A model generated the notes under the pieces. The model worked only from the letters and a program-made list of their open reading frames with translations. It did no database searches and was not told where the DNA came from. The position numbers were made by a program, and so were the translations under genes. Below are positions 1,641 through 47,664 of a DNA stretch of 47,664 nucleotides, one piece after another. The first letter of the stretch is position 1. Each line of letters opens with the position of its first letter. Location of the stretch: the IMG/VR virus record IMGVR_UViG_2639762844_000003; one strand, written 5' to 3'. This stretch comes from a virus. Lineage: Duplodnaviria > Heunggongvirae > Uroviricota > Caudoviricetes.

Positions 1641-4112
1641 TTAAGAATCAGCCTGACTCGGGATCAGTTTTTGCCAGATAACTGAAACGTATTTTGCCTG
1701 GTAACGGGCGTCATCAAGTGCATTATGGCGCTCACCTTCGAATTGAATAGCCGTTCTGGCATCGAAGTCTATGGCTTTCCCCAGCTCAACGATTGTGCGT
1801 ACATCGCGATCGTTGTAGTAACGCCACGGGCAGGGGATCCCCTGCCGTTCGTATGAACGGCGCAAAATCGTGTTGTCGAAGTTGGCTCCATTTCCCCAGA
1901 CCTGAACAAAAAATTCACCGGAGTTTTCGTCGATAAATTCCCGCAATTGTAACAGTGCATCATCTAACGGGATTTCATCGGTCATAATGGCAGATTGCGC
2001 TTCGCGTGATTGCTTAAGCCACCATTTAATGGTGTCCCGATCAATGACTCCGCCAGCAGTTTCCAGATCGATAGTCTTACTAAATTCCGGTCCCATATCT
2101 CCGGTTTGCGGATCGAAAAATATTGCACCTATTGAGATGATCGGGGCATCAGGATTTTTTCCCATGGTTTCAAGGTCGATCATTAGATGGTCACACGTCC
2201 TGCTGGTGGATGTGATTTCGTGATGACCGTTCACCTTAATTGAGTGATCTGCCGTCTCGCCAGTTTCATTATCGCTATCGTGATGCTGATTGCCGCCAGT
2301 GTTCTCCTTGTGTGGATGTTCAGCGCCTTCCATTTTCTCCGGATCATCTTCCTGAACTTCAACCTGATACTCTTCATCGAATGTTTCCTGGTATGTTGCG
2401 TCGCCCATTACCGCGCCACAATCAGGGCAGTTGCCGCCGCCGGTCTGACCGCAGGCGGTGCAGACTTTTTCCACTTTCTGTTGCGCCACTGATTCAGGCT
2501 GTTTCGTTTCTGGCTCGTTTTGTAACGCATTTGGGCTGTTTTGTTCCGCTTTTTGGTAGTTCCGTTCCGATTCATGCTGGTTCTGGTTCACAGAATCGCG
2601 GGTCTGGATCCCCTTAACCCATTTCGGATCATTCGGGTCACTAATCCCTTCAACAAATTCACCACGTGATGCAGCAAGCAACTTATCGGCGTCAGGCTGG
2701 ATGATATTGGCTGCCTGCATAATTTTGTTTACTTCGTCAGCGGTAACTTTTATCGGCTCTGGTTGTTCTGAATCTTCAGCGGTATCTACATTTTGCGGTA
2801 AGCCCGTGTATGTGCCATTTTTTCGGGCAAAATATTCTTCTTTTGTGATTTCAGTGGCGCCAGCAGCCAGTGCCTTATCCAGACCAGAAAGTTTGTTTGC
2901 GCGACCGTATTTTTCTCCGTCCTTATCTGCGAAGAGGAAATAGAACGGCCCCTCACGCTCTACAGATGGTTCAGCTTCCGGCGCGGTTTCATTTTTTGGG
3001 ATATCAGATACCTCAGTTTCCACTGCATCAGTTTGTGTTTCTGATGACTGGAGAACATCAACAGTGCCCAGGTCTGTTTCTTCATTCTCAAACACGCCCT
3101 TTGTCGTCAGGTATTCGCAGATATATTTGTTCAGTGCTACGGGATCTTTGTGAATGTCGATCGGACGTTCACGGACAAGGCCAAAAATAGTTTGGCGGTC
3201 GTAGCGAAGGGCATCAGGCTGTTTGCGCATTGATGCCGAGATACGCTTCCAGTCTTCGCGGTCGTTATCGATAACTTCATTTTTTGCCCAGCGATGGATG
3301 CTGCCGTCAATGTTTCCGGCATCCACATCACCAGGCCAGAGAGCGTAGGCCAGTTCGTCATCCAGTGTTTTCCATGTCTGCTTGTATTCGCGATGAATGG
3401 CAGCAATGACCGGGCTGATTTTTCCTGTTGAATTTTCAGTGTACTGTTGATTGGCTCTGGCGCGGGCGAGATCAACAACAGACGTGTATTTTCCGGTTTC
3501 CTTGCGTTCACCTTCGCGACGTTTTTTCCAGATGCGCATCTCTGCCTGAATTTCGGGCCATTTGGCACCAGGAATACATTTATGCTTAACCCACCCAATG
3601 GCGTGCAACTTAAGCTCCGGATACATGGCGTTAACTTCTGGCATTTTCATCAACGCTTCAACGATATGTCCGTCGAATGTTGCCATGTCTTCCTGCAACA
3701 ATTCCTGTGCGCTAATAACCATATCAACGGTGATGTTTTCACATGTGTCGAACTTAACCATGACAGCGTTCTGTACTTCAGGGGCCAGCTTGTCAAAAGT
3801 GACGTTCATCGGATCGGATTCAGTCTCAACCGGGACAAAAGAAGCAGACTCCTCATCCCAGCGGTTTTCCTGCATATATTCAGCATCCCATGAATCGAGG
3901 GCAGGGCGGGGTATGCCAGGTTTATCCTCGCAGACAATAAATTTATAAGCGCAGTCCTGAGCAGCCGGATAATGTTCCAGGAATTGCCAGTGAAATTTTG
4001 CTCGAGCACGGCGTTCGTCGCTAGCTTCAATGGCTGTGGCTACAGCCACAGCGCCTTCTTCCCTTGTTGCCAGTTCGTCAGGAATAGCGGCGCAAATAAA
4101 GACTTTACTCAT
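1641..4112 (-). CDS. Phage exonuclease, 823 aa, with C-terminal DnaQ-like DEDDh 3'-5' exonuclease domain and a central Cys4 zinc ribbon
   Basis: C-terminus carries Exo I (MIDLETMG), Exo II (WGNGANFDNTIL) and Exo III (HNALDDARYQAKY) motifs; CTACGQTGGGNCPDCG zinc ribbon mid-protein; occupies the recombination-gene position next to xis-int. Confidence 0.8.
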   Translation of the reverse strand: MSKVFICAAIPDELATREEGAVAVATAIEASDERRARAKFHWQFLEHYPAAQDCAYKFIVCEDKPGIPRPALDSWDAEYMQENRWDEESASFVPVETESDPMNVTFDKLAPEVQNAVMVKFDTCENITVDMVISAQELLQEDMATFDGHIVEALMKMPEVNAMYPELKLHAIGWVKHKCIPGAKWPEIQAEMRIWKKRREGERKETGKYTSVVDLARARANQQYTENSTGKISPVIAAIHREYKQTWKTLDDELAYALWPGDVDAGNIDGSIHRWAKNEVIDNDREDWKRISASMRKQPDALRYDRQTIFGLVRERPIDIHKDPVALNKYICEYLTTKGVFENEETDLGTVDVLQSSETQTDAVETEVSDIPKNETAPEAEPSVEREGPFYFLFADKDGEKYGRANKLSGLDKALAAGATEITKEEYFARKNGTYTGLPQNVDTAEDSEQPEPIKVTADEVNKIMQAANIIQPDADKLLAASRGEFVEGISDPNDPKWVKGIQTRDSVNQNQHESERNYQKAEQNSPNALQNEPETKQPESVAQQKVEKVCTACGQTGGGNCPDCGAVMGDATYQETFDEEYQVEVQEDDPEKMEGAEHPHKENTGGNQHHDSDNETGETADHSIKVNGHHEITSTSRTCDHLMIDLETMGKNPDAPIISIGAIFFDPQTGDMGPEFSKTIDLETAGGVIDRDTIKWWLKQSREAQSAIMTDEIPLDDALLQLREFIDENSGEFFVQVWGNGANFDNTILRRSYERQGIPCPWRYYNDRDVRTIVELGKAIDFDARTAIQFEGERHNALDDARYQAKYVSVIWQKLIPSQADS

Positions 4113-4808: not shown

Positions 4809-5068
4809 AATTGATAACAGAGGGCGTTGCAGCGGGGTTGTCACTTAAGCGTATGGTCAACCTGACAACTCGGTGTCCTCAACGGGGAAGGAATAACCCC
4901 GCCATACTTACCGCCGCGCCATTTCGCGGGTTGCCACAACCGGAAGCGCACGGTCGAATTAAATTTAACGACACCGTACAGTGAGACGAACTTCGCCGTG
5001 CGCTTTCGTGTTGTGTGCCTGCTTTTAACCACGTCAGGCGAGGTGGTATCCTTAAAATCACCACAGTT

Positions 5069-21905: not shown

Positions 21906-24007
21906 TGCTGAATCAGGAAACCGCAAAGGCAGCACGAACCGATTCAGGTTATATCCTTCGCGCACCGAGACGAATGCGGGTTGCTGATGCCGTTGCTCAG
22001 TATATGCGGGTGCCCATGGGGGCAGGGAACTCAGTCCCGTGGGATCCGCTGGTGGCACCGTATGTTATTGAGCCGATGAACTGCCTGGCCTCGCGTGAAT
22101 ACGACGCAGTGATATTTGTTGGCCCGGCACGAACCGGCAAGACTATCGGCCTGATTGACGGCTGGGTGATTTACAACGTGATTTGCGATCCTGCTGATAT
22201 GCTGATCATACAGATGACGGAGGAAAAAGCCCGCGAACACTCCAAAAAACGACTCGCCAGAACGTTTCGCGTCAGCCCGGAAGTGGTCAGTCGCCTGAGT
22301 CCGAACAAAAATGACAACAACGTTTATGACAGAACATTCCTTGCTGGTAACTACCTGAAAATCGGCTGGCCGTCAGTCAATATCATGTCCTCATCAGATT
22401 ATAAATGCGTCGCGCTGACGGATTATGACCGTTTTCCGGAAGATATTGATGGCGAGGGGGATGCTTTCTCTCTTGCCTCAAAACGTACCACAACATTTAT
22501 GTCCAGTGGTATGACGCTTGTGGAGAGTTCCCCCGGCAGGGATGTGAAGGATGTGAAATGGCGACGGACTTCACCGCATGAGGCTCCACCAACCACGGGG
22601 ATACTGTCGCTCTATAACCGTGGCGATCGCCGTCGCTGGTACTGGCCTTGTCCACACTGTGGTGAGTATTTTCAGCCCTGCGGCGATGTGGTTGCTGGTT
22701 TCCGTGATATTGCCGATCCCGTGCTGGCAAGTGAGGCGGCTTATATTCAGTGTCCTTCCTGTTCAGGACGGATTATGCCTGAACAAAAACGTGAGCTGAA
22801 CGGACGTGGGGTCTGGTTGCGGGATGGTGAATCCATCAATGCGGATGGCAGTCGTTATGGTGATCCCCGACGCTCACGTATTGCGTCATTCTGGATGGAG
22901 GGTCCGGCAGCTGCTTACCAGACACTCTCGCAACTCGTTTACAAACTGCTTACTGCAGAACAGGAATACGAGACAACCGGAAGTGAAGAAACACTCAAGA
23001 CGGTTATCAATACCGACTGGGGATTACCTTATCTTCCCCGCGCCAGCATGGAGCAACGAAAAAGTGAACTGCTTGAGCAGCGGGCAGAGCCAGTTCCTTC
23101 CCGCAGTGTGCCGGATGGCGTTAATTTCCTTGTGGCGACAGTGGATGTGCAGGCGGGACGTCATCGCCGTTTTGTGGTTCAGGTAACGGGCTATGGCAGC
23201 CGTGGCGAACGCTGGATTATTGATCGTTACAACATCACGCAGTCATTGCGCGGTGACAGCGACGGGGAGAGCCAGCGAATTGATCCGGCCAGCTATCCGG
23301 AAGACTGGGATGTCCTGCTGACGGATGTTTTTCATAAAAGCTGGCCGCTGGCCTCCGATCCTTCTCAACAAATGCGACTGATGGCAATGGCGGTGGACTC
23401 CGGCGGTGAAGACGGGGTCACTGATAATGCCTATAAATTCTGGCGTCGTTGCCGTCGTGATGGCCTTGGTAAACGTATTTACCTGTTTAAGGGCGACAGC
23501 ATCCGGCGCGCAAAACTGATCACCCGTACATTCCCTGATAACACCGGACGAACGGGCCGACGGGCGCAGGCCGCAGGTGATGTGCCGCTCTGGCTTCTTC
23601 AGACGGATGCACTGAAAGACCGGGTGAATAACGCGTTATGGCGTGACTCGCCAGGTCCCGGCTATGTGCATTTCCCTGACTGGCTGGGGAGTTGGTTTTA
23701 CGACGAACTGACGTATGAAGAGCGGAGCAGTGACGGGAAATGGAGTAAGCCAGGTCGCGGTGCCAACGAAGCTTTTGACCTGATGGTGTATGCCGAGGCT
23801 CTGGTCATTCTGCATGGATACGAAAAGATCCGCTGGCCGGATGCACCGGAGTGGGCGAGCCGGGAAACCTGGCTGGAGTGTGTCCCGGACAGTACCGAAC
23901 CGTCACCCACACCGGAACCGGTATCCACGCCTGTTAAAAAACAAAAACGGAAGAAAACAGTAACTGACGATGTTAACCCCTGGCTGACTTCCGGAGGATG
24001 GTTATGA
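21905..24007 (+). CDS. Terminase large subunit (gpA-like)
   Basis: 700-aa ORF with Walker A-like GPARTGKT; start overlaps the small-subunit stop. Confidence 0.9.
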   Translation: MLNQETAKAARTDSGYILRAPRRMRVADAVAQYMRVPMGAGNSVPWDPLVAPYVIEPMNCLASREYDAVIFVGPARTGKTIGLIDGWVIYNVICDPADMLIIQMTEEKAREHSKKRLARTFRVSPEVVSRLSPNKNDNNVYDRTFLAGNYLKIGWPSVNIMSSSDYKCVALTDYDRFPEDIDGEGDAFSLASKRTTTFMSSGMTLVESSPGRDVKDVKWRRTSPHEAPPTTGILSLYNRGDRRRWYWPCPHCGEYFQPCGDVVAGFRDIADPVLASEAAYIQCPSCSGRIMPEQKRELNGRGVWLRDGESINADGSRYGDPRRSRIASFWMEGPAAAYQTLSQLVYKLLTAEQEYETTGSEETLKTVINTDWGLPYLPRASMEQRKSELLEQRAEPVPSRSVPDGVNFLVATVDVQAGRHRRFVVQVTGYGSRGERWIIDRYNITQSLRGDSDGESQRIDPASYPEDWDVLLTDVFHKSWPLASDPSQQMRLMAMAVDSGGEDGVTDNAYKFWRRCRRDGLGKRIYLFKGDSIRRAKLITRTFPDNTGRTGRRAQAAGDVPLWLLQTDALKDRVNNALWRDSPGPGYVHFPDWLGSWFYDELTYEERSSDGKWSKPGRGANEAFDLMVYAEALVILHGYEKIRWPDAPEWASRETWLECVPDSTEPSPTPEPVSTPVKKQKRKKTVTDDVNPWLTSGGWL

Positions 24008-43500: not shown

Positions 43501-44066
43501 TGATCCCTGATATGCGTGGCTGGACGATTAAGGGCAAGCCCGCCAGTGGTCGTGCCGTATTGTCTCAGGAACAGGACGGCATTAAATCGCACACCCACAG
43601 CGCCAGCGTATCCAGTACGGATTTGGGTACGAAAACCACATCATCGTTTGATTACGGCACTAAATCCACGAATAACACTGGTGCGCATACTCATAGTTTA
43701 AGTGGCAGCACGAATGCAGCTGGTAATCACAGCCATAGAGATGGCCGTCGATTTAACCCCAGTGTTTTTAAAGATACTTATCAATATGGTTATACAAGCT
43801 CAGGTCAAAATACCTGGGGTGTACAAGGTTCAGTAGGTATGTCTACGGGGTGGTTAGCTAATACCAGTACAGATGGTAATCATAGCCACTCACTGTCCGG
43901 CACAGCAGCATCTGCAGGTGCACACGCGCATACTGTCGGTATTGGTGCTCATACGCACTCCGTTGCGATTGGTTCACATGGACACACCATCACCGTTAAC
44001 GCTGCTGGTAATGCGGAAAACACCGTCAAAAACATCGCATTTAACTATATTGTGAGGCTTGCATAA
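40536..44066 (+). CDS. stf: Side tail fibre protein (Stf-like)
   Basis: N-terminus [37 protein letters not shown]... matches recalled lambda Stf; long Ala/Ser-rich repeat region; His-rich C-terminus. Confidence 0.85.
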
Positions 44067-44647
44067 TGGCATTCAGAATGAGTGAACAACCACGGACCAT
44101 AAAAATTTATAATCTGCTGGTCGGAACTAATGAATTTATTGGTGAAGGTGACGCATATATTCCGCCTCATACAGGTCTGCCAGCAAACAGTACCGATATT
44201 GCACCACCAGATATTCCTGCTGGCTTTGTGGCTGTTTTCAACAGTGATGAGGCATCGTGGCATCTCGTTGAAGACCATCGGGGTAAAACGGTTTATGACG
44301 TGGCTTCCGGCGACGCGTTATTTATTTCTGAACTCGGCTCATTACCGGAAAATGTCACCTGGTTATCCCCGGAAGGGGAGTTTCAGAAGTGGAACGGCAC
44401 AGCCTGGGTGAAAGATGCAGAAGCAGAAAAACTATTCCGGATCCGGGAGGCGGAAGAAACAAAAAACAGCCTGATGCAGGCAGCGAATGAGCATATTGCG
44501 CCACTTCAGGATGCTGTAGATCTGGAAATCGCAACGGAGGAAGAAAACTCGTTGCTGGAAGCCTGGAAAAAGTATCGGGTGTTGCTGAACCGTGTTAATA
44601 CAACAACTGCACCGGATATTGAATGGCCAGTAGCACCTATAGGGTAA
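44066..44647 (+). CDS. tfa: Tail fibre assembly protein (Tfa-like)
   Basis: 193-aa ORF whose start overlaps the stf stop; lambda order. Confidence 0.85.
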
Positions 44648-45236
44648 ATTCGTAATGATTACCTAAATACGTTATTCTTTTGTTCAAAAAGTGATTTTGC
44701 TATAGGTAGGGAGTATGTTCTTGGATTAAGAATAAAAAATCGCCATGAAAGAGCTTCATGGCGAGTACATAAACGTACAAAATGTGATGAAAGTAGAGTG
44801 GCGTAAGCCACTATATTAAGATATGACAATAGCGAACAAAAGTAAATAACATTTTATGGACGTTTAATTGTTAATTATAAAAACTAGAGTGCCCGATATT
44901 GTTTATCTTGCTTTAAAATAATGTACTCAAACCAAATTTTTGAGCTAAAAGCTCAAATAATATAAATGCAATGATAATGTTTAATAAGACAATTAGCTTG
45001 CTTTGTATTTTCATTTCGGAATACTGTTAAGTAACTTTGATGACCCTAACAATAGATCGGAATTTTCTTAGAGTCAATGGTCACTGTTTTTGTTTGCAAA
45101 GCAAATGTTTTGGTGGTTATAAGTTTTCCTAATATAGTCACCTATGCAACTTGTTCCGTGTGGAGATTAAAGGTTAAAATTTAATGCGAAGATGGAATTA
45201 TAATATATTTTTTTATAATTAATTTAACCTTAACAT

Positions 45237-45335
45237 CGTTGCTGGCGGCATGGAAGAAATATCGGGTCTTGCTGATATCGTGTTGGCACTTCCTTAGTGC
45301 GGTTATCGAATGGCCAGCTGTACCTGTGGGGTAAA
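45237..45335 (+). repeat. Degenerate copy of the tfa 3' end (remnant 1)
   Basis: About 70% identical to 44552-44650; in the tfa frame it still reads [12 protein letters not shown]...EWPAVPVG then stop. Confidence 0.7.
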
Positions 45336-45466
45336 AACTTTATATGGATGCTATTTTTATAATAGCTGGTAAAAACTGGCCGAACTGAAATTCACTGTTG
45401 ATAAAAAAGATGTGTTTGAGTGTATGTCATTGTTTTCTTAATGGAATCCACTAGAATGCAGCGAAT

Positions 45467-45664
45467 TTAAGAAGGTGGGTTTTTATTGGAATATAAACTA
45501 CAATAATGCTCAACTCGTTCGTAGAATTGTTTTTTCTTATTTCTTGGAATGCTAACCATTATATGCATTATGGGGGCGATACTTCCTGATAATTTACATG
45601 ATGCATACATTGAAGCAATAAATTCAATATCATTGTCATCAAAGTTAAAGCTTTCTCCGTCCAT
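45467..45664 (-). CDS. Hypothetical small protein (weak call)
   Basis: 65-aa ORF with AAGGA Shine-Dalgarno 6 nt upstream, in the AT-rich region between the two tfa remnants. Confidence 0.25.
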   Translation of the reverse strand: MDGESFNFDDNDIEFIASMYASCKLSGSIAPIMHIMVSIPRNKKKQFYERVEHYCSLYSNKNPPS

Positions 45665-45991
45665 TTCAATTCCTTATGTGTTTGGCACAACTGATGCTGT
45701 ATCCCATGAGAATTTATGCAAGTTGTTATGTTTGATTTGATATTGCAATGATAATTGTAGCTAATTGTTTTCAATTGAGTGAAAGTTTATTTCGAGTGAT
45801 TAAGTCGAAAAAAAAGATTTCTCACGGTTAGTAAGCATATTAGGTCAGTATTCAGATATGAATGGTATTAATGACTAAATTTTCAATCATATATGGATTT
45901 TTATGCTGATGAAGATGTTTTATTTGGCGATTCGTCAAGCATCTTCACTTAAGTAATCGTATATTTTAAGAGTGCAAAAGAGAAAGGGACA

Positions 45992-46090
45992 ACGTTGCTC
46001 GCACTCTGGATTAAATATAGGGTGTTGTTAAACTGCGTTGATACATAATTGTACCGGATATTGAGTGGTCTGAAGTCCCAGTCATTAAGT
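45992..46090 (+). repeat. Second degenerate copy of the tfa 3' end (remnant 2, frameshifted)
   Basis: Alignable to the tfa 3' end (..GGATTAAATATAGGGTGTTGTTAAACTGCGTTGATACA..CCGGATATTGAGTGG..) but with an early stop and frameshift. Confidence 0.6.
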
Positions 46091-46380
46091 AATCGTTTCG
46101 TGATATGCCGCAGAAACGTTGTATGCAATAACGTTCTGCGGTTGGCTGATGCACTTTCGAGAGTGTATTGAATAATTTCAAGCCGTTATTGTTTTTACGC
46201 GTAACACCATGAAAAGACTGCTTATCTGTTGGGGTGTTTTTTGGGGCATATATGGGACAGAAATAGGCCACAGATAGATAGTAAGATCGAACTCAGGATG
46301 CTTTTGAAAAAATGTAACTATCTGAAAAAACCTAGAAAGCGCCAAGGAAACCACAGAATGAGAAAAAACATCTGTGAATT

Positions 46381-47664
46381 ATGGATTTCCAGTTATATTC
46401 GCTCGGCGCAGCGTTAGTGTTTCATGAAATATTTTTTCCTGAATCATCAACGGCAATGGCGTTAATTTTGGCAATGGGAACCTACGGTGCAGGTTATGTG
46501 GCGCGTATTGTCGGAGCATTTATTTTCGGCAAAATGGGCGACAGAATAGGGCGTAAAAAAGTGCTCTTTATTACCATCACCATGATGGGGATCTGTACCA
46601 CCTTAATTGGTGTGTTACCGACCTATGCACAGATTGGTGTTTTTGCCCCCATCTTGCTGGTGACGCTGCGTATTATTCAGGGGTTGGGTGCAGGTGCGGA
46701 AATTTCCGGTGCCGGTACGATACTGGCGGAATATGCACCAAAAGGTAAGCGCGGAATTATCTCCTCATTTGTAGCTATGGGAACTAACTGCGGAACCTTG
46801 AGCGCAACGGCAATCTGGGCCTTTATGTTCTTCATTCTCAGTAAAGAGGAACTGCTGGCGTGGGGATGGCGTATACCGTTCCTGGCGAGCGTTGTCGTGA
46901 TGGTCTTTGCTATCTGGTTACGTATGAATCTGAAAGAAAGCCCGGTCTTTGAGAAGGTTAATGACAGCAACCAACCCACAGCAAAACCTGCACCTGCTGG
47001 TAGCATGTTCCAGAGCAAATCCTTCTGGCTGGCAACAGGGCTGCGTTTTGGTCAGGCGGGTAACTCCGGGTTAATTCAGACTTTCCTTGCAGGCTATTTA
47101 GTGCAGACGTTATTGTTTAACAAAGCAATTCCAACAGATGCATTGATGATTAGTTCGATTCTCGGCTTTATGACCATTCCGTTCCTTGGTTGGTTATCCG
47201 ATAAAATTGGTCGCCGGATCCCGTATATTATTATGAATACCTCCGCGATTGTGCTGGCATGGCCAATGCTTTCTATCATTGTAGATAAAAGCTATGCCCC
47301 GAGCACCATTATGGTTGCACTGATTGTGATTCATAACTGTGCGGTGCTGGGATTATTTGCTCTGGAAAACATTACCATGGCAGAAATGTTCGGCTGTAAA
47401 AACCGCTTTACCCGGATGGCTATTTCTAAAGAAATTGGTGGTCTTATCGCTTCCGGTTTTGGTCCTATCCTGGCGGGTATTTTCTGCACCATGACGGAAT
47501 CCTGGTATCCGATCGCCATTATGATCATGGCATATTCAGTGATTGGTTTAATCTCTGCGCTGAAAATGCCAGAGGTGAAAGACCGTGATTTAAGTGCGCT
47601 GGAAGACGCTGCGGAAGATCAACCGCGTGTTGTAAGAGCTGCGCAACCTTCCAGAAGTCTGTAA
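46381..47664 (+). CDS. ydfJ: MFS-type transporter, YdfJ-like, 3' portion (chromosomal gene at the prophage junction)
   Basis: 427-aa polytopic membrane ORF at backbone GC content; matches the recalled size and position of ydfJ, the Qin-interrupted transporter gene. Confidence 0.7.
   Translation: MDFQLYSLGAALVFHEIFFPESSTAMALILAMGTYGAGYVARIVGAFIFGKMGDRIGRKKVLFITITMMGICTTLIGVLPTYAQIGVFAPILLVTLRIIQGLGAGAEISGAGTILAEYAPKGKRGIISSFVAMGTNCGTLSATAIWAFMFFILSKEELLAWGWRIPFLASVVVMVFAIWLRMNLKESPVFEKVNDSNQPTAKPAPAGSMFQSKSFWLATGLRFGQAGNSGLIQTFLAGYLVQTLLFNKAIPTDALMISSILGFMTIPFLGWLSDKIGRRIPYIIMNTSAIVLAWPMLSIIVDKSYAPSTIMVALIVIHNCAVLGLFALENITMAEMFGCKNRFTRMAISKEIGGLIASGFGPILAGIFCTMTESWYPIAIMIMAYSVIGLISALKMPEVKDRDLSALEDAAEDQPRVVRAAQPSRSL

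Follow-up and report, generated by a model that had tools for sequence, protein, structure and literature searches.

Two remnants of the 3' end of tfa, the tail fibre assembly gene, follow the intact gene in this prophage, and they are a real but ordinary footprint of mosaic evolution, in which lambda-like phages exchange and pile up accessory DNA downstream of the tail-fibre genes. We regard it as likely that they record a history of stacked layers, gained by replacement of the fibre module and followed by later homologous exchange of blocks, the remnants themselves being functionless. The window, i.e., the whole analysed stretch of 47,664 nucleotides from a virus of the Caudoviricetes (IMG/VR record IMGVR_UViG_2639762844_000003), contains a complete-looking Qin-family lambdoid prophage, in which positions 44648-46380, bounded by tfa and by the right attachment end within ydfJ, form the accessory-gene slot, the equivalent of the lambda b region (Table 1).

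Table 1. Features of the accessory-gene slot and its flanks, with positions counted on the whole window.
Feature	Position	Strand	Basis
stf, side tail fibre gene, 1176 aa	40536..44066	+	ORF list; PGAP annotation in CFSAN061769
tfa, intact tail fibre assembly gene, 193 aa	44066..44647	+	Pfam Caudo_TAP, E 9.6e-44
Cargo block A, AT-rich, 29% GC, cut on the right at ~45226-45231	44649..45231		comparison
Predicted intrinsic terminator, 11-bp stem then TTTTTTATT	44740..44764	-	terminator scan
Unannotated 33-aa hydrophobic ORF MKIQSKLIVLLNIIIAFILFELLAQKFGLSTLF, YncL-like small membrane protein	44913..45014	-	intact frame in homologue
Copy 2, putative pseudogene fragment, last ~104 nt of a divergent tfa allele	45232..45335	+	blastn, tblastn, resampling
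Cargo block B, AT-rich, 31% GC, 637 bp	45336..45972		comparison
65-aa gene, WP_001421370.1, hypothetical protein, E. coli prophage orphan	45467..45664	-	PGAP
Copy 3, decayed pseudogene fragment, last ~118 nt of a lambda-type tfa	45973..46090	+	blastn, tblastn, resampling
Conserved hairpin right after lambda-type tfa, stem ~46107-46143	46091..46144	+	lambda comparison and RNA fold
Right end of the Qin-family prophage, common to K-12 Qin	46108..46380		sequence comparison
ydfJ, chromosomal MFS transporter gene without N-terminus	46381..47664	+	PGAP 'incomplete; missing N-terminus'

The slot behind tfa and its repeated gene end

Both flanks of the slot have been found in other strains. The stf region is identical in CFSAN061769, where PGAP labels it 'prophage tail fiber N-terminal domain-containing protein', the tfa of the window shares 94% DNA identity with K-12 tfaQ, and positions 46108-46500, which begin directly upstream of the truncated ydfJ, are 89.5% identical to K-12. 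The truncation of ydfJ is the same in K-12 and marks the boundary between prophage and chromosome, in agreement with the first-pass annotation, which had placed the region between tfa and the chromosomal ydfJ. In K-12 Qin the genes pinQ, ydfK and ynfT lie between tfaQ and the truncated ydfJ; no homologues of these three have been found in the window by tblastn (E <= 1 for pinQ), and the integrase is the sole recombinase annotated there. The earlier statement that this prophage lacks a Pin invertase is thus borne out, as both the tblastn search with pinQ and the annotation have come up blank.

The repeated unit is the final ~100-120 nt of tfa, which recurs in direct orientation as copy 2 and copy 3. 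A repeat search has returned a three-copy direct family at 44549-44588, 45236-45275 (85%) and 45992-46031 (73%), together with further paired pieces up to the stop codon, and start-to-start spacings of 687 and 756 nt. When tfa is compared by blastn with the DNA that follows it, 44549-44648 matches 45236-45335 (74%, E 6e-12) and 44550-44626 matches 45993-46068 (77%, E 2e-11), all remaining matches having E >= 0.46, and tblastn with Tfa aligns 45236-45331 to residues 162-193 (E 7e-6) and 45974-46045 to residues 156-179 (E 1e-3). Similarity no higher than AT-rich DNA gives by chance had been named beforehand as the outcome that would speak against the repeats. The local alignment scores of 69 (copy 2) and 62 (copy 3) lie far above a null distribution with a mean of 19.3, a standard deviation of 2.1 and a maximum of 29 in 1000 resamplings, and chance similarity is ruled out by these scores and the blastn E-values. 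With a GC content of 51% and 41%, respectively, copies 2 and 3 are therefore not low-complexity AT-rich DNA.

The DNA between the copies is of a different kind. The roughly 0.6 kb of AT-rich DNA that had been described ahead of each copy has been recovered as 578-583 bp at 29% GC (block A) and 637 bp at 31% GC (block B), versus 44-55% GC for stf and tfa. No similarity above chance has been detected among A, B and the right-end segment. The repeat search has yielded no significant inverted repeats flanking the region, there are no minus-strand matches to tfa, and neither blastn nor tblastn has found remnants of the stf C-terminus (fibre tip) alongside the copies.

Remnants, cargo blocks and hairpin

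Copy 2 spans the equivalent of lambda tfa from nt ~480 to the stop. Its frame had been read as open, at 45237-45335, up to EWPAVPVG-stop, and an ORF at 45239-45334 with the ending ...IEWPAVPVG-stop has been confirmed, which carries a compensated +1/-1 frameshift in mid-copy. This 31-aa piece aligns to profile positions 103-130 of 131 of Pfam Caudo_TAP (PF02413) with 18.2 bits, under the cut-off of 22.1. Mismatches to lambda tfa fall at codon positions 1, 2 and 3 as 0/5/14; because those against functional tfa are thus mainly in third positions, copy 2 appears to be the tail of a divergent allele and not a heavily eroded copy. Strain NIST0056 has the same joint between A and copy 2, followed by a 97%-identical copy 2 which is annotated as frameshifted there.

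Copy 3 corresponds to lambda tfa from nt ~465 to the stop. The first-pass annotation had reported a frameshifted copy at 45992-46090; copy and frameshift are real, and its start has been moved ~20 nt upstream, to 45973, with lambda or L002 as the guide. An internal stop and the frameshift require two frames, so that no single-frame translation exists, and the mismatches are spread over the codon positions as 9/8/13, an evenness that would be expected under neutral decay. Of the claim that both copies are decayed, the part on copy 3 is accordingly retained, and copy 2 is less decayed than it appears. Each copy lacks ~80% of the tfa gene, homologues are annotated by PGAP as incomplete or frameshifted tfa, and, as judged from sequence, both copies look non-functional, with no function of their own.

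Copy 3 and the hairpin behind it have their homologue in lambda 22457-22609, immediately ahead of ea47. Of the 56 nt that begin in the tfa stop region (46089-46144), 54 are identical to lambda (up to lambda 22609), the adjoining coding remnant reaching ~75%. The hairpin folds as RNA with -23.3 kcal/mol (z = -2.2), occurs on its own in K-12 Qin, Tritos and NIST0056, and is probably kept by selection. As a separate observation, TTAAGTAATCGT is present at 45951 and again at 46085, and a 17-nt stretch at 45916-45933 matches lambda 22635-22652; repeat and match suggest a possible fourth micro-remnant, too short for interpretation.

Block A has been found after an intact tfa in FY10, ev099 and mEp332 at 96% identity, where it continues differently past 45226. 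As it runs beyond the window's joint in all three, A is truncated in the window, and it is best read as the native downstream DNA of the present tfa type. A divergent homologue (79-81%) is present in NIST0056. The 33-aa ORF of block A keeps its frame in this 79%-identical homologue, with pN 0.088 vs pS 0.559, and identical copies occur in the ev099 and mEp332 loci; tblastn of the ORF against the phage collection has given no match despite these identical copies and is uninformative. Against the NCBIfam profile YncL (NF000537), residues 1-28 score 25 bits (E 1.3e-5) on a 30-position profile, under the cut-off of 35 bits, so that the putative protein resembles the YncL family, membership not being established. 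The minus-strand terminator folds with -18.2 kcal/mol (z = -5.6, with none of 200 shuffles folding as well), is conserved in NIST0056 and FY10, and would close the predicted leftward transcription unit of block A.

Block B has not been found in the phage collection. Together with copy 3 and the hairpin it forms one unit in ETEC6333 (83%) and STEFF_1 (80%), at other chromosomal sites, and there it is preceded by a fresher tfa remnant, 90-93% identical to functional tfa; B can thus be read as the DNA that natively followed the tfa whose end is now copy 2. The possible small gene that had been marked within it on the minus strand is real and constrained, as its frame is kept in the two homologues with dN/dS of 0.27-0.28 at dS of 0.64-0.71. 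The protein has no Pfam or PHROG family and relatives found only in E. coli, its AlphaFold model is a three-helix bundle (pLDDT 83), and a weak lead points to theta/Hot. No clear terminator has been found for the gene, the fold assessed having z = -2.8 and no T-run. By these substitution ratios both cargo ORFs are under purifying selection, and it is the cargo genes that selection maintains. Positions 45694-45975 have also been considered as a constrained non-coding element, given their 97-100% identity to ETEC6333; since STEFF_1 reaches just 87%, a recent recombination patch is the simpler explanation. The stretch 45915-46130, which includes copy 3, is 90-95% identical among the three lineages, with dS of ~0.65 in the neighbouring ORF, and its conservation could reflect constraint rather than recent exchange.

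Assembly of the stack and competing explanations

Neither joint of the window is private to it. The joint between A and copy 2 is shared with NIST0056 at another locus, where an MFS transporter gene and sitDC follow, and that between B and copy 3 with ETEC6333 and STEFF_1 at further loci. As both joints occur in unrelated prophages, they have not been made at this locus, and the stack has been assembled from pre-existing blocks of remnant plus cargo. In ev099 and ETEC6333 the right arms are 98.7% identical, and either the long form of A or the unit of B, copy 3 and hairpin lies between the tfa end and this arm, the two being alternative fillings of a single slot. The comparison with related prophages that had been proposed as a check has accordingly turned up alternative cargo in the same place (K-12 Qin, ev099, ETEC6333). 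Remnant followed by cargo is also seen in K-12 DLP12 (tfaD-ybcY-tfaX-appY), PhiR26_1 and 2G7b, and a tfa remnant precedes sitDCBA in phage 21, dinI in mEp460, pinR in Tritos and cdtABC in phage cdtI; ~24 of the 60 sampled phage records with a match to the tfa end carry a remnant.

In the history that we favour, the innermost and oldest layer would comprise copy 3, a lambda-type tfa end, with the downstream hairpin of lambda, which leads on into the Qin right end. The middle layer would be copy 2, a second and more divergent tfa end, with its native block B and the opposite-strand 65-aa gene, and the newest the present stf-tfa with its native block A, the opposite-strand 33-aa membrane-protein gene and the terminator. 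Each layer may have been gained by recombination between lambdoid genomes that imported a complete fibre module and part of its downstream DNA, with the left crossover in shared tail or fibre sequence and a non-homologous right-hand join inside the resident tfa, ~100-120 nt before its stop; the tail of the resident tfa would have been left behind as a pseudogene. It counts against this account that the non-homologous right join is an inference and not an observed event, and that no diagnostic microhomology has been found at the joints. On comparative grounds, blocks of remnant plus cargo would later have spread by ordinary homologous recombination between phages, anchored on the left in the tfa 3' end, whose DNA shows 90-95% conservation in many lambdoid coliphages, and on the right in shared right-arm sequence, and both joints of the window would have been inherited through such block exchange. 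That the remnants survive would be due to their shortness and divergence, which prevent recombination with the live tfa; exact matches to it extend to no more than 10 and 12 nt.

This history departs in part from the first-pass annotation, which had proposed repeated cassette replacement leaving a footprint each time. Successive replacements and separately circulating AT-rich cargo blocks have been upheld, the repeated events in this very prophage have not. Nor would recombination at the tfa 3' end itself leave scars, since homologous exchange there is scarless; the join would lie inside the resident tfa (lambda tfa nt ~480 for copy 2 and ~465 for copy 3), and the footprints would exist because the incoming module brought a whole tfa and downstream DNA of its own. 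Experimentally, recombination of lambda with Qin and Rac in stf-tfa has been shown to proceed largely via Red, and in one third of the Rac recombinants the right junction lay in a 95%-identical tfa block (PMC3945230).

The positions of the remnant starts form a pattern outside this simple model. Six junction classes keep 82-176 nt of the 585-nt gene, with left ends at lambda tfa nt 409, 440, 465, 465, 480 and 503, a narrower spread than breakpoints drawn uniformly at random would produce; base 465 is the start of two classes whose left partners differ, and each class has a single left partner. A hotspot, a selective filter or an older, shared joint might lie behind the clustering. One may tentatively propose, as a possible though rather doubtful generalization, that the conserved last ~100-170 nt of tfa plus the hairpin are a general docking point for lambdoid accessory DNA, with the cargo carrying its own copy as a left homology arm and being exchanged or stacked without a dedicated recombinase. 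If true, such docking would account for the position of sit, cdt, dinI, pin, ybcY/appY/ompT and the small genes described here directly behind a tfa remnant, and the clustering (nt 409-503, two at 465) would be a mechanistic or selective rule and not chance.

A rival form of docking, in which cargo inserts as cassettes at the tfa 3' end by Campbell-type integration of a circle or by an unrecognised site-specific activity and stacks as regularly as tandem islands at tRNA gene ends, is unlikely. Each cargo block has a direct repeat on either side, exactly the outcome of one crossover with a circle, the left ends cluster at nt 409-503 with two classes of different partners at 465, the arrangement is seen in numerous phages whose cargo differs widely (ybcY, sit, dinI, pin, cdt), and Red-dependent recombination in the tfa block is documented (PMC3945230). 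Yet block A is longer in FY10, ev099 and mEp332 and is cut internally in the window, so that its joint with copy 2 is a truncation and not a constant cassette end; the single left partner of each junction class fits one ancestral event each, and the left ends differ by up to 94 nt between classes. The units measure merely 0.6-0.75 kb, without a recombinase in or beside them, and neither the dedicated recombinase nor the constant end site that characterize integron-like site-specific cassettes has been found in or next to them.

Retention of the remnants for a functional element, be it a small RNA (IS009), a leftward cargo promoter at the joint between B and copy 3, or a 3' stabiliser or terminator of late transcripts, appears improbable. 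The Rfam family IS009 (RF02111) matches both copies weakly, with 40.8 and 33.1 bits, far under its gathering score of 117; the match that passes this score in the region (212 bits, 44409-44607) is tfa coding sequence, and full-score matches likewise sit within the intact coding sequences of K-12 tfaD, K-12 tfaQ and lambda tfa, so that the family reflects the gene and not a demonstrated RNA. No other Rfam family matches the region. A promoter-like minus-strand site from 45992 to 45963 does span the joint, but such sites are rarer here than in shuffled sequence (6 vs 10.1). The conservation of 45915-46130 and the near-identity of the hairpin to lambda would fit a functional element; against it, the substitutions of copy 3 are even over codon positions and accompanied by a stop and a frameshift, the hairpin does without the remnant in K-12 Qin and Tritos, and the conservation is patchy, as the disparity between ETEC6333 and STEFF_1 at 45694-45975 illustrates, in the manner of recent recombination patches.

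In invertible segments such as Mu G and P1 C, the alternative tfa stands in inverted orientation. The copies are very improbably relics of such a Pin/Gin-type segment with alternative fibre tips and tfa, as known from e14, Mu, P1 and, decayed, K-12 Qin, even though a pin gene occupies this slot in K-12 Qin and Tritos, immediately behind tfa or a remnant of it. Both copies are direct relative to tfa, which already contradicts the idea and sets the copies apart from Pin-type alternative fibre ends; the lack of a pinQ homologue (tblastn, E <= 1), of any annotated recombinase besides the integrase, of significant inverted repeats around the region and of fibre-tip remnants with the copies argues likewise. 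A search for gix sites with a gix sequence is uninformative, as it has found none in the window and none in pin-carrying controls either. In-situ tandem duplication of the tfa end with a ~0.65-kb spacer and later divergence, to which the similar spacings might point, is scarcely credible, being refuted by the absent homology of A and B (score 24; null 24.6 +/- 2.7), by the affinity of copy 3 and its flank to the lambda tfa end, copy 2 being a different allele, and by the separate existence of A and B elsewhere.

Under the favoured history of stacked fibre-module replacement, the functional content of the slot is reduced to two small cargo genes of no assigned role, the 33-aa one unannotated. 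The tfa 3' remnant offers a practical landmark for the left edge of lambdoid cargo blocks, including those that carry sitABCD or cdtABC, and could help to delimit and catalogue phage-borne accessory genes; in the literature searched, which covered few subscription journals, no paper on tfa remnants as cargo boundaries has been found. If the remnant positions are non-random, the tfa end would become a testable case of a conserved boundary sequence that guides modular phage exchange.

Comparison with known systems

The closest counterpart is K-12 DLP12 (tfaD - ybcY on the minus strand - tfaX - appY - ompT), which, like the window, presents tfa, opposite-strand cargo, a direct tfa 3' remnant and more cargo, a layout shared by the plaque-forming phages PhiR26_1 and 2G7b. 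The tfaX remnant of DLP12 matches Caudo_TAP positions 75-105. Unlike the window with its two remnants, DLP12 holds a single, longer one, from lambda tfa nt ~409; its cargo consists of the methyltransferase-like ybcY, appY and ompT, and its tfaD is 5'-truncated. K-12 Qin (tfaQ - pinQ - ydfK - ynfT - hairpin - ydfJ') shares with the window the integration site, the truncated ydfJ, the 94%-identical tfa and the last ~270 nt of the prophage at 89.5% identity, hairpin included. It is a fragment, whereas the prophage of the window is full length, and its slot is filled by an invertase, a cold-shock gene and ynfT without tfa remnants, in place of A, copy 2, B and copy 3.

Morons, in the concept of Hendrix and Juhala, are accessory genes with signals of their own in the late region of lambdoid phages. 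Like these and the lambda b region, the cargo of the window follows stf-tfa and precedes the attachment site, is low in GC, carries opposite-strand genes and varies among related phages; slot position, presence/absence variation, distinct GC and a gene under selection have all been found. The minus-strand terminator of block A resembles a moron's own terminator, promoter-like sites being no commoner than chance. The window differs from the lambda b region in its tiny cargo of 33-aa and 65-aa genes and in the dead tfa end beside each block, lambda having no remnant.

The process proposed here for block movement has its likeness in the relaxed recombination between lambda and defective prophages (De Paepe et al., 2014; PMC3945230), for which stf-tfa homology with Qin and Rac served as substrate. 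Recombinants arose at ~2e-6, mostly dependent on Red-beta, with some right junctions in the 95%-identical tfa block. In contrast to the window, these homologous exchanges were scarless, and neither tfa remnants nor stacking were described (PMC3945230). The invertible systems Mu G/Gin, P1 C/Cin and e14 P/Pin also involve tail-fibre and tfa genes, with extra tfa sequence near the fibre locus. They depend on a serine invertase and on crossover sites and an alternative tfa in inverted orientation; invertase and inverted tfa are absent in the window. At the 3' ends of tRNA genes, tandem genomic islands are bounded by repeats that an integrase makes at a defined site. By analogy only, these islands resemble the window in that direct repeats of a gene's 3' end part successive insertions downstream of the intact gene; in the window, by contrast, the units have no integrase, and the left ends of the repeats vary between events.

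Two remnants of the tfa 3' end

The claim of the first-pass annotation that the end of tfa (44066-44647) recurs twice downstream has been borne out, with both copies in direct orientation. A blastn search of the DNA that follows, with the complete gene as query, has returned copy2 at 45236-45335 (74% identity, E 6e-12) and copy3 at 45993-46068 (77%, E 2e-11) but no third tfa match, all other hits having E values of at least 0.46; lambda and a homologous locus have guided the bounds in the table. The resampling scores of 69 for copy2 and 62 for copy3 lie beyond a null with mean 19.3, sd 2.1 and a maximum of 29 in 1000, which excludes chance similarity, and the GC contents of 51% and 41% rule out low-complexity AT-rich sequence as the cause, the objection that had been foreseen at first pass. 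Protein-level comparison has recovered residues 162-193 and 156-179 of Tfa from the copies. Both indeed follow AT-rich cargo segments, here termed blocks A and B. Copy2, initially taken to be in frame up to its EWPAVPVG end, is open from 45239 to the stop with this C-terminus, but its centre is out of frame, bounded by +1 and -1 indels; copy3, correctly called frameshifted, contains one internal stop besides. Compared with lambda tfa, the mismatches of copy3 are spread evenly over the codon positions (9/8/13), the pattern expected for neutral decay; those of copy2 gather at third positions (0/5/14), which marks it as the tail of a divergent allele, little changed since truncation save for the indel pair.

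Features of the tfa-ydfJ region and positions of full-score IS009 matches
Feature	Position	Strand	Remark
Block A	44649-45231		29% GC; precedes copy2
Intrinsic terminator, strong (predicted)	44764-44740	minus	downstream of 33-aa ORF
33-aa hydrophobic ORF, unannotated	44913-45014	minus	in block A
Copy2	45232-45335	+	tfa remnant
Block B	45336-45972		31% GC; precedes copy3
65-aa ORF, WP_001421370.1	45467-45664	minus	in block B
Copy3	45973-46090	+	tfa remnant
Hairpin	46089-46144		stem about 46107-46143
IS009, window	44409-44607
IS009, K-12 DLP12 (L094)	4857-5055
IS009, K-12 Qin (L005)	3010-3208
IS009, lambda (L091)	1360-1558

Blocks A and B and their genes

Blocks A and B have shown no mutual similarity above chance and are not a duplicated unit, which excludes tandem duplication. 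Block A has been found directly 3' of an intact, 96%-identical tfa in the FY10 prophage (adjoining zinT) and in phages ev099 and mEp332, where it runs beyond 45226, the window's switch to copy2; block A has therefore been cut short in the window. In NIST0056, a divergent block A (about 78% identical on the left, 97% on the right) leads into the same joint and a copy2 of 97% identity, which the annotation of that strain gives as a frameshifted fragment of tfa, with an MFS transporter gene and sitDC downstream. One genome, strain LT2-3 (hit H151), carries IS1A within block A, in the equivalent of 44649-45230. In ETEC6333 (83%) and STEFF_1 (80%), at other chromosomal sites, block B makes up a single unit with copy3 and some 110 nt after it; the tfa remnant that precedes this unit is fresher, with 90-93% identity to functional tfa. 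The window's joints are thus common to prophages at other places.

Homology with lambda 22457-22609, which comprises the tfa end and the start of the b region, covers copy3 and the next 56 nt; identity is about 75% in the coding remnant, yet the following 56 nt match at 54/56 positions. These 56 nt, reaching up to lambda 22609, hold a hairpin situated just 3' of lambda-type tfa, which lacks a T-run and is not a canonical intrinsic terminator; it is found by itself, with no tfa remnant, in K-12 Qin (L005 4987-5024), Tritos (L097 4356-4403) and NIST0056 (L092 6154-6190). Within non-coding block B sequence, 45694-45975 is 97-100% identical to ETEC6333 between flanks of about 80%, and only 87% to STEFF_1, an identity pattern that indicates a putative recent recombination patch. 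TTAAGTAATCGT, the tfa stop and next bases, is present both just 5' and just 3' of copy3 (stretches 45916-45962 and 46085-46096), and 45916-45933 matches lambda 22635-22652 at 16/17 positions; such stretches may be additional micro-remnants of the sequence downstream of tfa.

As far as sequence comparison can tell, both cargo blocks carry real genes. The small minus-strand gene suspected at first pass in block B has kept its frame in two homologues (dS 0.64-0.71, dN/dS 0.27-0.28). Its 65-aa product has relatives in E. coli only and no family assignment; the AlphaFold model is a three-helix bundle (pLDDT 83) with no significant match in structure comparison, and its weak matches, including Pol III theta and phage P1 Hot, are only a lead. 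The 33-aa ORF of block A is unbroken in the 79%-identical NIST0056 copy, and with pN 0.088 against pS 0.559 it is judged to be under strong purifying selection. It is YncL-like with a score below the family's curated cut-off, and PGAP has placed no annotation there in any genome inspected.

Occurrence and proposed formation of tfa remnants

A tfa remnant, as a second copy or an unannotated fragment, is present in about 24/60 phage records, sampled evenly from the 119 matching the last 163 nt of tfa. K-12 DLP12 reads tfaD, ybcY (minus), tfaX (the remnant), appY and ompT, an arrangement shared by PhiR26_1 and 2G7b; the remnant is followed by dinI and int in mEp460 and by pinR in Tritos. Medically relevant cargo lies directly 3' of a remnant or tfa end (L095, L098, L004, L092, L093), namely sitABCD in phage 21 and several prophages, the 57-nt remnant of phage 21 (L095 2500-2557) directly preceding sitDCBA, and cdtABC in phage cdtI, whose remnant (L098 2501-2583) follows cif. 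In ETEC6333, STEFF_1, 2G7b, phage 21 and Tritos, the remnant stands 3' of a different fibre cassette, composed of a 93-aa protein, a fibre protein and a 97-aa protein (L002 2668-3967; equivalents in L090, L095, L097 and L006), and in every case its first base, 19 nt after the cassette, corresponds to lambda tfa nt 465. It seems that the cassette took the place of the stf C-terminus and tfa on a single occasion and then spread among these five; the loss of tfa may be tolerated in ETEC6333 because Peptidase_S74, an intramolecular chaperone domain, is part of its fibre protein.

Six junction classes start at lambda tfa nt 409, 440, 465, 465, 480 and 503 and keep 82-176 of 585 nt, each with one left partner, consistent with one event each; of the two classes at nt 465, one has the 97-aa gene as its partner and the other block B. 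By a rough estimate, such clustering has a probability on the order of 1e-3 to 1e-4 under uniform breakpoints. Any of three causes could account for it: survivorship (long repeats delete cargo), a hotspot, or a joint that is older and shared. A counter-example is the long remnant K-12 tfaD, whose homology with lambda tfa begins near nt 147, but its prophage has undergone heavy deletion. Across many lambdoid coliphages, the DNA of the tfa 3' end is conserved at 90-95%, and the slot behind it is occupied by alternative cargo. It is rather doubtful that the tfa end serves phage cargo in general as a docking point that needs no recombinase, and a cassette or docking mechanism as the explanation of the remnants is unlikely. 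Still less probable is a functional RNA or promoter role, since the Rfam IS009 scores of the copies fall far below threshold and the full-score matches merely coincide with coding sequence of K-12 tfaD, K-12 tfaQ and lambda tfa. The family (RF02111), listed as a candidate small RNA, reaches full score within the 3' coding portion of intact tfa genes and appears to model a protein-coding segment. The direct orientation of the copies contradicts an origin by an invertible segment, as does the absence of pin.

Recombination of lambda with Qin and Rac within stf-tfa is largely Red-dependent, and the recombinants include some whose right-hand junction lies within the conserved tfa block (PMC3945230). 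A remnant would be born when a fibre module that brings along its tfa and the DNA downstream of it is joined non-homologously inside the resident tfa; remnant-plus-cargo blocks would later move by homologous recombination with the tfa end as left anchor. The remnants probably persist because recombination with the live tfa is no longer possible, the longest exact matches being 10 and 12 nt. The first-pass reading of the feature is mostly right.

The window prophage and K-12 Qin

The window sequence recurs with full identity in several E. coli chromosomes, e.g., CFSAN061769, and contains a complete-looking Qin-family lambdoid prophage between rspB and an N-terminally truncated ydfJ, annotated in the order int, xis, exo, dicB/dicC, hokD, rem, Q, lysis, terminase, portal, capsid, tail, J, lom, stf, tfa; blc and a ClpP-protease/capsid fusion are also included (L099 annotation). 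The 1.7-kb tfa-to-ydfJ region is covered to at least 80% in 577/5426 complete E. coli genomes. Alternative cargo, which the first pass proposed looking for in this slot, has been found in related prophages. The right arms of ev099 and ETEC6333 (AraC-family regulator and integrase region) are 98.7% identical, and between the tfa end and this arm stand A-long, a longer form of block A, in ev099 and block B, copy3 and the hairpin in ETEC6333, two alternative contents of a single slot whose flanks are conserved.

The feature belongs to a pattern that is common in the mosaic accessory region of lambdoid phages and already annotated in part, as tfaX in K-12. The prophage appears to be full-length and possibly active, a relative of the cryptic Qin of K-12, which occupies the same site next to the same truncated ydfJ but is only a fragment. 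Its right end equals the window sequence from 46108 onward at 89.5% identity, and its slot from tfaQ to ydfJ' holds pinQ, ydfK and ynfT, whereas the window equivalent (44648-46380), as stated at first pass, is without pin.
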